NCBI GenBank assembly: GCA_050261575.1
Contig: JBLNDL010000077.1
Location: forward strand, 1-55,396
Origin: Sphingomonadaceae bacterium
Lineage (GTDB): Bacteria > Chloroflexota > UBA6077
Length of the DNA: 55,396 nt
Reading direction: 5' to 3'
The number at the start of each line of letters is the position of its first letter. The first letter of the stretch is position 1. This document shows, in pieces, positions 2,953 to 45,894 of this stretch. The notes under the pieces were generated by a model. It searched no databases and had not been told where the DNA came from. It saw only the letters and a program-made list of their open reading frames with translations. The translations under genes were made by a program, and so were the position numbers.

Positions 2953-3093
2953 CCCGACCCCCTTTCTGGCGGCTGTCTGGGCCTTCGCCGGACGGGGGCC
3001 GGAAACCTAGCCGGGGCGCGCGGCTAGCGTCTCGGTGGATCGACATAACAGAGAGGCGCTGGACCACGCGCCAGCGCCTCTCGCGGAAAGTCG

Positions 3094-3193
3094 TCGTCCG
3101 TTTCCTACGCTGGCATTACCCAGGTCAGGTTCGACGGTCGGCGGCGGAATTCGGCCGCCATCTCAGCCCGGCTCTCCCCGAGCCCCCGTTCCG
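3094..3193 (-). promoter_or_regulatory. TPP (thi-box) riboswitch
   Basis: Minus strand reads GGGGCTC...GGGCTGAGA...GACCGTCGAACCTGACCTGGGTAATGCCAGCGTAGGAA, the TPP aptamer consensus, upstream of the thiamine-precursor ABC operon; P1 pairing looks weak. Confidence 0.93.
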
Positions 3194-3501
3194 TATTGTT
3201 CCAAAGCAGGTATCCCTAGGTAGAGCCCACGTTTCCCGGGAGAGATTCTGGCATGAGCCAGAGATATCTGCTTTGGTGTTCCGAACGATGCCAGCGTACC
3301 AGTAGGGGAGAGTGATGTCAAGCTGTCCTTGGGCGGAGTGTCAGGCAACTTTCTTGCTCTGATTGGTGTGATCACTCTCGCTGAGGGCGTCGCTTCCGGA
3401 GTGCACCGGGGTGCCTCGGCCGGAGGCATCTGGGCAGAGGGCGGTTGGCGCGGGTTGTCGGCCGGGGCGTGGGGGCCGTGGGCGGGGAAACGAGGTGCGA
3501 A

Positions 3502-10679: not shown

Positions 10680-10757
10680 GGTGAGGGTAGCCAAGTGGTT
10701 TAAGGCGCCAGGTTGTGGCCCTGGAGATCGTGGGTTCGAATCCCATTCCTCACCCCA
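10680..10757 (+). tRNA. tRNA-His (GUG)
   Basis: Cloverleaf, anticodon arm CCAGG-TTGTGGC-CCTGG, G-1, GTTCGAATC T-loop, encoded CCA. Confidence 0.97.
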
Positions 10758-10773
10758 GCCTCTCCAATCGTAT

Positions 10774-10846
10774 GCGCCAGTAGCTCAGGGGATAGAGCAC
10801 CAGTCTTCGGAACTGGGTGTCGGGGGTTCGAATCCCTCCTGGCGTG
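10774..10846 (+). tRNA. tRNA-Arg (UCG)
   Basis: GCGCCAG/CTGGCGT acceptor, anticodon arm CCAGT-CTTCGGA-ACTGG; CCA not encoded. Confidence 0.95.
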
Positions 10847-16480: not shown

Positions 16481-17545
16481 TCATCGGCGCCGCGCGCCTC
16501 TGTTATCCTGGTTGTCGACCAGCACCCTGCGAAGCATGTCAAGGTCCTCCAAGACGCGGCCGGTGCCTCGCACCACCGACTGGAGGGGGTCCTCGGAGAT
16601 GTGGACCTCGATGCCGGTCCTCTCGGCGATCAGCCTGTCCAGGCCGGGCAGGAGGGCGCCACCGCCCGCCAGGGTGATGCCGCGGGTCATCATGTCCGCG
16701 ACCAACTCGGGCGGTGTCTCCTCGATGGTCTCGGTGACCGCTTCCAGTATGGCGCTGATCGACCCGGAGATGGCTTCGCGCACCTCCGCGCTGGTCAGCT
16801 CCACCTCTCCGGGTAGCCCGGTGAGGACGTCCCGCCCCCGCACCACGATGCTGCGGTCGTCGGCAGCCGGGTGGGCGCTGCCGGTGGTGATCTTGATCTC
16901 CTCGGCCATGCGCTCGCCAATCATCAGGTTGTGCCGCTGCCTGACGTAGAGCATGATGTCCTGGTCCAGCTCGTCGCCAGCGATGCGAATGGAGCGAAGG
17001 GCCACCATCCCTCCAAGGGAGATGACGGCCACCTCCGTGGTCCCGCCGCCGATGTCGACGATCATGCTCCCCGATGGCTCGGTGATGGGAAGGCCGGAGC
17101 CGATAGCGGCAGCCATCGGCTCCTCGATCAGCAGCGCCTCTCTTGCGCCCGCGCTGCAGGCCGCGTCGTGAACCGCCCTGCGCTCAACCTCGGTGACCCC
17201 GCTTGGGATGCCGACGACAACCCTCGGCCTGGGAATCAGCGTGAACTCCTCGTGCACCCTGCCGATGAAGTAGTGGAGCATCTGCTCGGTGACGTCGAAA
17301 TCGGAGATGACGCCATCTTTGAGTGGCCGTATGGCAACTATATTCGCGGGGGTGCGACCCACCATCCGCTTGGCCTCCGAGCCGATGGCAAGCACCTTCC
17401 TGGTCTTCTTGTTGATTGCGACGACGGATGGCTCGTTGATGACTACCCCTTTGCCTCGCACCAGGACCAGGGTGTTGGCGGTGCCCAGATCGATTCCGAT
17501 GTCCCTGGACATCAAACCAAGGATTGCGTTGAGGGGGCTGAACAC
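16481..17545 (-). CDS. mreB: Rod shape-determining protein MreB
   Basis: DIGIDLGTANT, RPLKDGVI, DIGGGTTE, ETPPEL, GGGALL. Confidence 0.97.
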   Translation of the reverse strand: MFSPLNAILGLMSRDIGIDLGTANTLVLVRGKGVVINEPSVVAINKKTRKVLAIGSEAKRMVGRTPANIVAIRPLKDGVISDFDVTEQMLHYFIGRVHEEFTLIPRPRVVVGIPSGVTEVERRAVHDAACSAGAREALLIEEPMAAAIGSGLPITEPSGSMIVDIGGGTTEVAVISLGGMVALRSIRIAGDELDQDIMLYVRQRHNLMIGERMAEEIKITTGSAHPAADDRSIVVRGRDVLTGLPGEVELTSAEVREAISGSISAILEAVTETIEETPPELVADMMTRGITLAGGGALLPGLDRLIAERTGIEVHISEDPLQSVVRGTGRVLEDLDMLRRVLVDNQDNRGARRR

Positions 17546-17668
17546 GGGCTCCTCCTAGCGTCGAGTCAACGGGGGGTTCAGGGCTGATTTCGGGGCGCTG
17601 CGGGGCGGACGGCCGGGCGCCGTGTGCCGCCATCGCGACCCCATCAAGTTGATCAAGAGCGCCGCGAT

Positions 17669-17698
17669 ACTATACCACGCTGGCGGAGGAGGGTTCAA
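17669..17698 (-). promoter_or_regulatory. sigma70-type promoter for the mreB operon
   Basis: TTGAAC-N18-TATAGT with extended TG. Confidence 0.6.
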
Positions 17699-17745
17699 GA
17701 AAGGAGAAAGGAGCAAAGAGCAACCCGGGACCGGCCCGCTGGCGG

Positions 17746-17791
17746 CGGAAAGGTCACTCGGGGCAAAGAGGTGCCCCGAGTGACCTTTCCG
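17746..17791 (-). terminator. Perfect 20-bp hairpin closing the candidate ncRNA
   Basis: CGGAAAGGTCACTCGGGGCA-N6-TGCCCCGAGTGACCTTTCCG; no U-tract immediately after the stem. Confidence 0.6.
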
Positions 17792-18027
17792 TGACCGCTC
17801 GCTGGTTTCCTTCGCCCGCTCGGACTCTCGCCCTCGCTGGTCGTCAGTCACCTACGGCCGGCTCTCCGCCCGGTTCCGTTCCAACGGCCTGTCAGGCTTT
17901 CGCCCTCCCGGCCCGCTGGCCGTCCCGCTTCGGAGTCCCGAACCTCGCTCCGGCTCTTGCGTCTCGGATTCCCCGCTCCGCCGATCTCCTTCGCTCCGTT
18001 CGGGTCACTTACCGGATCCCTCGGGGC
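17773..18027 (-). ncRNA. Candidate structured non-coding RNA of unrecognised family
   Basis: Own promoter and terminal hairpin, complementary 5'/3' ends, two GA-GGGC-GNRA-GYCY-GA hairpins, strong U depletion, no convincing ORF. Confidence 0.6.
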
Positions 18028-18034
18028 AAGGTGG

Positions 18035-18064
18035 ACTATACCCGACCTCCCACCGGACTGTCAA
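18035..18064 (-). promoter_or_regulatory. Near-consensus sigma70-type promoter for the candidate ncRNA
   Basis: TTGACA-N18-TATAGT. Confidence 0.7.
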
Positions 18065-18145
18065 CTCCCAAAGTGGGAGTTTCGAGCAGTCTGTTAGGAC
18101 TCAGCACGGTTAGCGGGATTCTACCGTGGTTGCAGGGCATGACAA

Positions 18146-18170
18146 GGGGGACGGCGAGCCGCCGTCCCCC
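18146..18170 (-). terminator. Terminator-like hairpin after metY
   Basis: GGGGGACGGCG-N3-CGCCGTCCCCC 11-bp stem. Confidence 0.6.
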
Positions 18171-18187
18171 ACGAAACCGTTCCGTGG

Positions 18188-19586
<1,399 letters not shown>

Positions 19587-45594: not shown

Positions 45595-45669
45595 TGGAGC
45601 GGAAGACGAGATTCGAACTCGCGACCCTCTCCTTGGCAAGGAGATGCTCTACCACTGAGCCACTTCCGC
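45595..45669 (-). tRNA. tRNA-Gly (GCC)
   Basis: GCGGAAG acceptor, anticodon loop TTGCCAA, encoded CCA. Confidence 0.97.
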
Positions 45670-45732
45670 ATTCGACATCAACCGCAAGAAGCCGGCAGCC
45701 TGATCCTAGCTCCGCTTCTCACTCCACTTCAG

Positions 45733-45814
45733 TGGGGAAGGCGGGACTCGAACCCGCACGGATCACTCCACATGATCCTAAGTCATGCTCGTCTACCAGT
45801 TCCGACACTCCCCC
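45733..45814 (-). tRNA. tRNA-Leu (UAG)
   Basis: GGGGGAG/CTTCCCC acceptor, loop CTTAGGA, long variable arm; CCA not encoded. Confidence 0.95.
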
Positions 45815-45818
45815 GCCC

Positions 45819-45894
45819 TGGTGAGCCGCGCAGGACTCGAACCTGCAACCCAGTGATTAAGAGTCACTTGCTCTGCCAATTGAGCTAGCGGCCC
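45819..45894 (-). tRNA. tRNA-Lys (CUU)
   Basis: GGGCCGC acceptor, AGTGA-CTCTTAA-TCACT, encoded CCA. Confidence 0.97.

Follow-up and report, generated by a model that had tools for sequence, protein, structure and literature searches.

A structured RNA gene of ~255 nt lies on the minus strand between metY and mreB (18027-17773) in the genome of an uncultured soil Chloroflexota. The window analysed is contig JBLNDL010000077.1 of assembly GCA_050261575.1 at its full length of 55,396 nt, and coordinates without a prefix refer to it. This is almost certainly a genuine structured RNA gene in its own right, and judged by its sequence and structure the RNA is a new class. The first and last 13 nt of the RNA pair to form a 12-bp helix (P1), which closes a four-way junction with three irregular purine-rich arms (P2, P3 and P4). 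P1 and the GGUA/GAAA junction beside it (AGUA/GAAA in most relatives) are together named the clamp, which also closes other RNAs of the same Chloroflexota class. Because the host group is uncultured, the findings rest on metagenome-assembled genomes (MAGs) and on metagenome and metatranscriptome contigs. A first-pass annotation of the window had proposed a new structured non-coding RNA gene at this place, independent of metY and mreB, and this is borne out by covariation, by the lack of an Rfam match and by discrete metatranscriptome cover.

The consensus fold obtained with RNAalifold has 70 pairs, from seven sequences aligned over 264 columns. Standard pairs fill 92.2% of the pair cells, compared with 27-44% after the partners are slid by 1-3 columns. 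Compensatory changes on both sides are present in 14 of the 70 pairs, whereas shuffled alignments give 5.2 +/- 1.8 and 0 of 500 reach 14. When a paralog is added the count rises to 19 pairs (6.7 +/- 2.1 in shuffles), the eight-sequence alignment having been fitted to the covariance model. Each arm has compensatory changes, and because of its many G-U pairs the fold holds for the minus strand only. The minimum free energy of a 291-nt stretch is -147.1 kcal/mol, against -122.9 +/- 4.7 for 200 shuffles, none of which is as stable (z = -5.1). The arm-tip loops of the consensus have 4 nt and are mostly of the GNRA type (GAAA, GAGA, GCAA), many unpaired purines are invariant, and the RNA is composed of 43.5% G and 23.5% A with 7% U.

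Most structural elements recognised by the first-pass annotation are retained in this fold. The pairing of the two ends (18027-18015 with 17785-17773, 12 pairs) is kept in 7/7 aligned homologues. The two hairpins said to share one architecture (17886-17913 and 17816-17840) have the sequences described and belong to helices 9 and 12, each of which shows compensatory changes. The CCCGAAC/GUUCGGG helix persists as CCGAAC/GUUCGG, with one A-U to U-A swap. The hand counts are exact, with 54 A, 14 U and nine AGCG in 17791-18010 and 14 GGA in 17781-18020. AGCG is enriched (2.6 +/- 1.5 in shuffles, 0.1% of which reach nine), and GGA stays at the level of the base composition (11.2 +/- 2.6, with 18% of the shuffles reaching 14). 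The repeated elements may be protein-binding modules, as the annotation inferred.

The homologues conserve base pairs instead of a reading frame. Their lengths are 255, 257, 258, 259 and 323 nt, they differ by indels of 1-2 nt, and no frame is open throughout. Two overlapping open reading frames (ORFs), 17791-18225 on the plus strand and 17555-17851 on the minus strand, have no Pfam match.

The RNA is strongly represented in RNA libraries. Eight soil metatranscriptome runs from two studies hold a share of 0.10-0.22 of the sampled words of the 1001-nt stretch around the RNA (0.19-0.22 in seven of them), which is about the size of the RNA alone within that stretch. In runs X10 and X11 (study P5), 418 and 358 contigs lie on ~17772-18027, of which 331 and 172 are at least 99% identical. 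Their summed depth is 8e4-7e5 across 17774-18011 and 3.5e3 in the bin with the final 16 nt of the RNA. At the 3' end of P1 the depth falls about 1000-fold, from ~1.5-3.9e5 to 377 and 188 in 17740-17773. It is 0 in 17672-17739 and on metY, and mreB reaches no more than 5. In both runs adapter letters adjoin 17772-17780, and they occur at some internal places as well. In study P4, run X8 holds a single contig on the RNA (17776-18014), and run X7 a single mreB contig (17407-17652, depth 2) that ends below the mreB promoter. No joints that would point to a circular form are reported in the mapped runs. The abundant, discrete species of ~255 nt expected by the first-pass annotation is thus seen as contigs confined to 17772-18027 with very high summed depth; its ends match the ends of P1 and it stands far above its neighbours. 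Carry-over of DNA is a formally possible source of such cover, but it is not expected to yield a 1e4-1e5-fold excess over the flanking DNA. Since the cover is confined to the RNA and is about 0 on the neighbours, the RNA is not part of the mreB transcript; it is an independent, stable and abundant RNA rather than an mreB leader.

The gene has its own signals for transcription (Table 1). The promoter TTGACA-N18-TATAGT, which the annotation had placed with a start near 18027, is found at 18064-18035. Its -10 hexamer ends 7 nt before G18027, and the promoter is kept in 7/7 further members. Three promoter-like sites are present in 17400-18400, compared with 0.1 expected from shuffles, and the pattern TTGAC-N-N16-19-TATAGT has just nine sites in the whole 3.72-Mb genome. 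Several of these sites in G000 (C25:85957, C42:24783, C47:6726, C93:22966 and others) precede GC-rich, structured-looking sequence, and several of them might drive other non-coding RNAs. The conserved element that adjoins the -35 hexamer occurs once in the genome of the window. A loose pattern of the element has one other match in the genome, at C63, without adjoining -35 and -10 hexamers, and therefore no regulon can be inferred. The annotation had also assigned the neighbours signals of their own. That holds for mreB, whose promoter (17698-17669) is present and conserved, but not for metY, whose supposed terminator, a GC hairpin of 11 bp, lacks a U run and failed the scan for terminators (0 found). 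The metY stop codon is directly followed by a second promoter-like site, TTGTCA-16-TAGAAT (18118-18145, minus strand), which overlaps this hairpin (18142-18166). Downstream of mreB follow mreC, mreD and the PBP2 gene, in that order.

Table 1. Coordinates of the RNA, its parts, its neighbours and its rod-shaped relatives. Positions are those of the window unless a locus is named; L-type and S-type are explained in the text.
Feature	Coordinates	Strand	Remarks
255-nt structured RNA (P1 clamp, junctions, three arms)	17773..18027	-	covariance model R1, 224 bits; covariation; metatranscriptome cover confined here
P1 5' strand, GCCCCGAG-G-GAUC	18015..18027	-	invariant within L-type, covarying across 20 clamp RNAs
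J1/2 junction, CGGUAAGUGAC	18004..18014	-	contains the invariant GGUA half of the loop-E-like motif; invariant alignment columns
Arm P2: CCGAAC/GUUCGG base, purine-rich internal loops, apical GGG-loop-CCC hairpin	17938..18003	-	helices 2-6
Arm P3: tip GCC-GGGA-GGGC-GAAA-GCCU-GACA-GGC (17912-17887)	17866..17933	-	helices 7-9; compensatory changes in four pairs
Arm P4: irregular rod, GA/AA internal loops, GAGA-loop tip hairpin (17840-17816)	17795..17861	-	helices 10-12
J4/1 junction, UCACGGAAA	17786..17794	-	contains the invariant GAAA half of the loop-E-like motif; invariant columns
P1 3' strand, GGUC-A-CUCGGGGC	17773..17785	-	3' end of the abundant species; depth drop, adapter letters at 17772-17780
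Pyrimidine/U-rich tail ACCUCUUUG after P1	17764..17772	-	in all L-type members; U runs also after P1 in S and X types
20-bp hairpin re-using the P1 3' strand as 5' arm	17746..17791	-	own genome only; excludes P1 when formed; without following U run
Sigma-70-type promoter of the RNA gene, TTGACA-N18-TATAGT	18035..18064	-	11/12 consensus positions matched
Conserved element CTCGAAAC..TTTGGGAG, immediately 5' of the -35 hexamer	18065..18086	-	common to orthologue and paralog promoters
Separate mreB promoter, TTGAAC-N18-TATAGT with TG extension	17669..17698	-	conserved in relatives as TTGTCC..TGGTATAGTAT
mreB (downstream neighbour, outside the RNA)	16481..17545	-	Pfam MreB_Mbl, E = 9.6e-142
metY-like gene of a pyridoxal-phosphate enzyme (upstream neighbour)	18188..19471	-	Pfam Cys_Met_Meta_PP, E = 2.7e-147
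S-type RNAs	L140:1372-1517, L155:1494-1637, L156:1481-1618, L165:1590-1727	+, -, -, -	rod and end clamp

Known RNA families do not include this RNA. At the gathering threshold, Rfam 15 finds in the window just five tRNAs and a thiamine pyrophosphate (TPP) riboswitch, all of them elsewhere. The tRNA genes form clusters of three (45598-45894, minus strand) and two (10681-10846, plus strand), and the riboswitch lies at 3085-3199 on the minus strand with 58.2 bits (gathering score 54.3). In 17550-18200, matches with E <= 10 are microRNA- or snoRNA-type noise on the 20-bp hairpin, with at most 30 bits against cut-offs of 39-233. Nothing matches the RNA at seven homologue loci, and nothing is found at seven other clamp-RNA loci; these scans cover 14 loci with 16 of the 20 clamp RNAs compared below, L155, L156, L165 (two RNAs) and L166 standing outside them. 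The comparison with Rfam had been named by the annotation as a check of novelty, and its result supports novelty. No description of the RNA was found by full-text search or in the accessible portions of PMC2864571, PMC11109978 and PMC5737381. In the accessible portions of the surveys the sole Chloroflexi-specific motif is Chloroflexi-1 (RF01698), which does not match this RNA.

Three housekeeping RNAs are ruled out by the genome's own copies elsewhere: RNase P RNA at C20:47014-47300 (75.3 bits), signal recognition particle (SRP) RNA at C78:11360-11624 (196.6 bits) and tmRNA at C46:772-1130 (162.6 bits). The RNase P RNA match is short, with 287 nt for a model of 367 positions, and its 75.3 bits are below the gathering score of 100; this RNase P RNA may be reduced or divergent.

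The complete RNA is confined to one family. By blastn the RNA stretch is present in 5/41 related genomes, namely the genome of the window and all four others of its family (f1), and in 0/36 genomes of other families. These five, two metagenome contigs (L078 and L081) and one paralog make up the L-type set of eight RNAs. The paralog is a second copy in G001, 323 nt long with a 70-nt insertion within arm P2. It has the same promoter type, clamp and terminator, and lies beside a HicB-like gene and unannotated ORFs instead of mreB. No further copies of the RNA were found in the genome of the window. An 18-nt word of the 5' end gave 42 stretches in a collection of species genomes, of which five are true (from the four already-known MAGs of the family) and 37 are due to chance, and 36 stretches in metagenome contigs, two of them true. 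Covariance model R1 finds the RNA in 5/39 genomes of the order, all of f1 (one of the seven families of the order), and has matches in 6/66 genomes of the class, the sixth being a mere 44-nt clamp hairpin (G044). With the filters off, R1 gives at most 15.1 bits at 25 mreB loci of other families, all on short hairpins. The order metY-RNA-mreB is found in the five f1 genomes and on contig L078, and L081 shows the metY side only. Since metY stands beside mreB in 0/25 loci of other families, this adjacency may simply be inherited. Beyond this inherited synteny there is no conserved protein-coding neighbour.

The clamp is more widespread than the complete RNA. The clamp class is defined here by ends of the form RYCCCRAG / CUYGGGRY with four more base pairs, followed on the 5' side by RGUA and preceded on the 3' side by GAAAGGU. 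The RNA of the window belongs to it, with 12 of the 13 clamp positions paired, GGUA and GAAAGGU. Clamp RNAs were searched by scanning for the 3' word with at most one mismatch in the class and then checking for the 5' partner. In a phylum sample of 401 genomes, the 15-nt 3' word occurs in 12/46 genomes of the class (11 published and the unpublished G049) and in 3/355 outside it, where each match either falls in coding sequence or lacks a 5' partner; the reversed word, as a control, gives ~9 in all. In the 66 genomes of the class, families f1, f8 and f10-f16 have the clamp, and it was not found in f2-f7, f9, f17 or f18. The clamp closes rods of 138-146 nt, RNAs of 87-323 nt and hairpins of 43-44 nt in leaders of phosphofructokinase (pfk) genes, and the bodies range from 18 to ~300 nt.

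P1 covaries across the 20 clamp RNAs compared, which come from seven families, and this makes it a true helix. Position 1 is G-C in 16 and A-U in two; position 2 is C-G in 14, U-A in three, A-U in one and U-G in two; position 6 is G-C in 17 and A-U in three; position 8 has one C-G; and position 10 is G-C in 11 and A-U in nine. Position 9 is a purine-purine mismatch in L-type and mini hairpins and a Watson-Crick pair in S and X types. Within the L-type the sequence of P1 is frozen, and 10 of its 12 pairs never vary among the eight RNAs, the paralog included. GAAAGGU is present in 19/20 clamp RNAs (GAAAGAU in M078), and RGUA likewise in 19/20. Beside P1, the 5' strand reads (G/A)AGUA and the 3' strand GAAA in 11/12 S-type, X-type and mini members, and the mini hairpins run AGUA, closing pair, loop of 6 or 7 nt, GAAA. 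This fits the loop-E or sarcin-ricin (bulged-G) consensus AGUA/GAA, and the clamp junction is read as a loop-E/sarcin-ricin-like motif, with the difference that the L-type has GGUA. Such a motif is a building block and not a family.

Family f10 contributes four published genomes with mini hairpins of 43-44 nt and family f12 contributes one, and all five hairpins lie directly upstream of a phosphofructokinase gene. The unpublished G049 has one too and is left out of this count. The G044 hairpin consists of the P1 helix, an interior of 18 nt, the GAAAGGU word on the 3' side and a U-rich tail. The mini clamps at L135, L136, L137 (1474-1517, plus strand), L138 and L142 are near-identical across three genera of f10 and one of f12, and in G043 and G044 a second hairpin, which covers the ribosome-binding site, follows the mini clamp. 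The mini clamp may be a cis-regulatory leader of pfk. No mini hairpin was found at pfk in the L-type genomes, including the pfk homologue of the window's own genome (3994-5163, plus strand; 56% identical to the G044 protein). A mini hairpin and a free clamp RNA occur together in just one examined genome, G054.

The S-type RNAs are rods of 138-146 nt, each with its own TTGACA-type promoter, highly conserved internal words and a loosely paired, highly conserved middle. Model R2, built from four of them, has matches in 6/66 genomes of the class, in families f8, f11, f12, f13, f14 and f16, and the S-type is found in none of f1-f7 or f10. No genome examined contains both an S-type and an L-type RNA. 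When three mismatches to the S-type word are allowed, forward matches are no commoner than in the reversed control, and just those with 0-2 mismatches are real. An S-type relative of ~200 nt at L206 (G050:C126:7976-8177) is expanded internally and has a variant clamp with CCCGGG for CCCGAG, the AGUA/GAAA junction being intact. Single clamp RNAs of 87, 120 and 206 nt were also found. G001, G054, G056 and G059 carry two copies each. In G056 (L165) an S-type RNA and the 87-nt clamp RNA stand in tandem upstream of a pair of genes for an extracytoplasmic function (ECF) sigma factor and its anti-sigma factor, and in G058 (L166) the 120-nt clamp RNA lies just upstream of the primary sigma-70 gene. 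In general, the genomic contexts of the free clamp RNAs vary.

The interpretation that we favour, and regard as probable though by no means assured, is that of a trans-acting protein-binding RNA with the clamp as its handle. The RNA would be a scaffold or component of a ribonucleoprotein, or a decoy. P1 and the GGUA/GAAA junction would form a handle recognised by one protein or processing factor common to the clamp RNAs, and what is specific to the lineage in the function would reside in the variable three-arm body. Either the U-rich tail or the downstream hairpin is probably where the precursor ends, and trimming would then take it back to the base of P1. The clamp can be understood as a recognition site because its sequence is fixed beyond the needs of pairing and because it recurs on unrelated bodies. 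Y RNAs of the YrlA type, to which Ro/Rsr proteins bind, are comparable, with a conserved end helix as shared handle, a variable body and two paralogs in some genomes. Unlike them, the RNA described here has no tRNA-like module and no Rfam match, and no TROVE/Ro gene accompanies it (0 matches to the Ro60 family PF05731 in a genome rated 100% complete).

Several points weigh against this interpretation. The clamp-binding protein is hypothetical. The clamp could merely protect the ends and terminate transcription; U-rich tracts follow P1, and for this reason the clamp may also be a long-range terminator stem. The L-type has GGUA and not AGUA, and the loop-E-like motif is a reading of the sequence. 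The alignment is small, with seven or eight related sequences, and it was itself the source of the structure tested on it. Cover was mapped for four of the eight runs that hold the stretch, and the depths, which are k-mer depths summed over Logan contigs and not read counts, are strandless and a rough measure of level; in study P4 the RNA has a depth of just 6.9 (X8). In the genome of the window, the 20-bp hairpin competes with P1 and is thermodynamically preferred, for which reason P1 has to form before it in the course of transcription.

A functional analogue of 6S or Ms1 RNA, as suggested by the first-pass annotation, is possible but rather unlikely. The abundant RNA would then bind RNA polymerase, as holoenzyme or as core, and keep it in store while the soil cells grow slowly or lie dormant. 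Ms1 is strongly expressed in the stationary phase and binds the core enzyme, according to the accessible part of PMC4191392. The RNA shares with 6S and Ms1 its own strong sigma-70-type promoter, paired ends in a closing helix and a mature 3' end off a classical terminator. It is an abundant, stable transcript with defined ends, as is characteristic of 6S-type RNAs (contigs in two studies, high depth in two runs), and it is very abundant in the soil metatranscriptome contigs. In the S-type relatives, which are rods, the middle is loosely paired and highly conserved, and two clamp RNAs lie just upstream of sigma genes (the primary one in G058, an ECF one in G056), although such neighbours are found at only 2/20 loci. 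The niche of 6S RNA may be free, since none is detected in the genome (best 18.9 bits, E = 0.19, cut-off 46.4) or in any of 39 genomes of the order. On the other hand, the 6S model detects its target in just 5/14 control genomes, so that its silence in the 39 genomes weighs little. Neither this RNA nor the 14 loci with 16/20 clamp RNAs match RF00013. Covariation supports a four-way junction that lacks a central bubble, not a rod; the closing helix is invariant in sequence, and the RNA is limited to one of the seven families of the order. Nothing in the structure supports a 6S- or Ms1-like role.

It is also conceivable, though doubtful, that the clamp is the site of one RNA-binding protein in a titration circuit, in which the clamps of the pfk leaders would be the targets and the free L-type and S-type RNAs the decoys. 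In this proposed logic, and in it only, the arrangement resembles that of CsrB/RsmZ sponges with cis targets, the same element being present in leaders and in abundant free RNAs. The element itself is different, a helix with a loop-E-like junction and not GGA loops, and the CsrA of the genome is linked to FliW. The circuit is weakened by the L-type genomes, which lack a pfk clamp, and a mini clamp and a free clamp RNA come together just in G054. If true, the circuit would amount to a global control similar to that of Csr or 6S and built from unrelated parts, by which dormant soil cells would couple central carbon flux with their growth state.

The function could instead lie in the RNA itself, as a ribozyme or self-assembling RNA among the large ornate RNAs such as raiA, OLE, ROOL and GOLLD, but this is improbable. 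Like these RNAs, it has a complex, covariation-supported multi-arm structure with 4-nt, mostly GNRA-type loops, many invariant unpaired purines, the purine-rich composition given above and high expression. The lack of a conserved protein-coding neighbour beyond the inherited synteny also speaks for this reading. Unlike them, it occurs in another host phylum and combines an exchangeable body with a fixed end clamp, and it matches no Rfam model of raiA, OLE, ROOL or GOLLD. A body that can be replaced (18-300 nt in the clamp relatives, a 70-nt insertion in the paralog) argues against a single conserved catalytic core, and no signature of cleavage or joining is seen, the joint tables being empty.

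A cis-acting mreB leader is very unlikely. Such a leader would be a riboswitch or a protein-dependent attenuator, in which the closure of P1 lets a downstream hairpin terminate transcription. The RNA does lie directly upstream of mreB and on the same strand at 6/8 L-type loci (L081 ends before the downstream gene, and the paralog is elsewhere), and its layout of a P1-closed multi-helix junction followed by a hairpin and a same-strand gene is that of riboswitch aptamers with terminator platforms. The mini clamps in pfk leaders, beside a hairpin that covers the ribosome-binding site, also fit a role in cis. Furthermore, the 3' strand of P1 can alternatively pair with the following GCCC(U/C) in G004, G002 and the genome of the window. 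In G004 and G002 this pairing shares sequence with the terminator arm, and in the window it gives rise to the 20-bp hairpin, but the overlap is absent in G003 and G001. The perfect 20-bp terminal hairpin, which the annotation counted as part of the unit, is real (17746-17791), but it is a peculiarity of this genome and not part of the abundant RNA species; its 3' arm is covered ~1000-fold less than the core of the RNA and so lies outside that species. At the same position the relatives have the U-rich tail, then an ordinary hairpin-plus-U terminator of unrelated sequence and then the mreB promoter. This conserved promoter, 3' of the terminator, serves mreB separately. The depth is ~1000-fold lower after P1 and 0 across 17672-17739, the RNA being covered ~1e4-1e5 times more than the downstream gene. 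The paralog, the S types and the X types adjoin unrelated genes, and no match exceeds 15.1 bits at the 25 mreB loci of other families. An invariant P1 with a variable core is the reverse of the riboswitch pattern.

The CsrB-like sponge proposed by the first-pass annotation, which would titrate CsrA as CsrB and RsmZ do, can be set aside as highly improbable. CsrA is encoded in the genome (82.9 bits), the RNA is abundant and it contains 14 GGA triplets. This number is at the level of the base composition (11.2 +/- 2.6), and none of the three arm-tip loops is centred on GGA, all having 4 nt and being mostly of the GNRA type; for these two reasons such a role is disfavoured. The csrA gene follows fliW and a flagellin gene. 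In this arrangement CsrA is antagonised by FliW and not by a small RNA. The distributions differ as well, with CsrA in 19/39 genomes of the order and 6/7 families (none in the single f4 genome) and the RNA in one family.

Finally, a non-autonomous mobile element or its relic, with the strands of P1 as terminal inverted repeats around variable cargo, has next to no probability. In its favour, the ends are inverted repeats, the interiors differ by locus, and G001, G054, G056 and G059 have two copies each. Against it, there are just one or two copies per genome and no further one in the genome of the window, the conserved promoter lies outside the supposed repeats, synteny is conserved at six loci, the G-U pairs and compensatory changes indicate selection on one RNA strand, and RNA libraries contain the RNA in massive amounts.

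Hardly any of the abundant soil Chloroflexota have been cultured, and their RNA biology is essentially undescribed. In one of their families, an ornate, covariation-supported RNA without a relative in Rfam 15 reaches a contig cover 4-5 orders of magnitude above that of its neighbour genes. RNAs of such abundance usually belong to the core machinery or are global regulators (6S RNA, tmRNA, RNase P RNA, SRP RNA). The invariant clamp, present on differing bodies and in the hairpins of pfk leaders, offers an experimental handle, and the metatranscriptome runs contain hundreds of natural variants of the RNA, from which a deep covariation analysis is potentially within reach without culture. The clamp suggests a modular RNA design with one fixed handle and exchangeable bodies.

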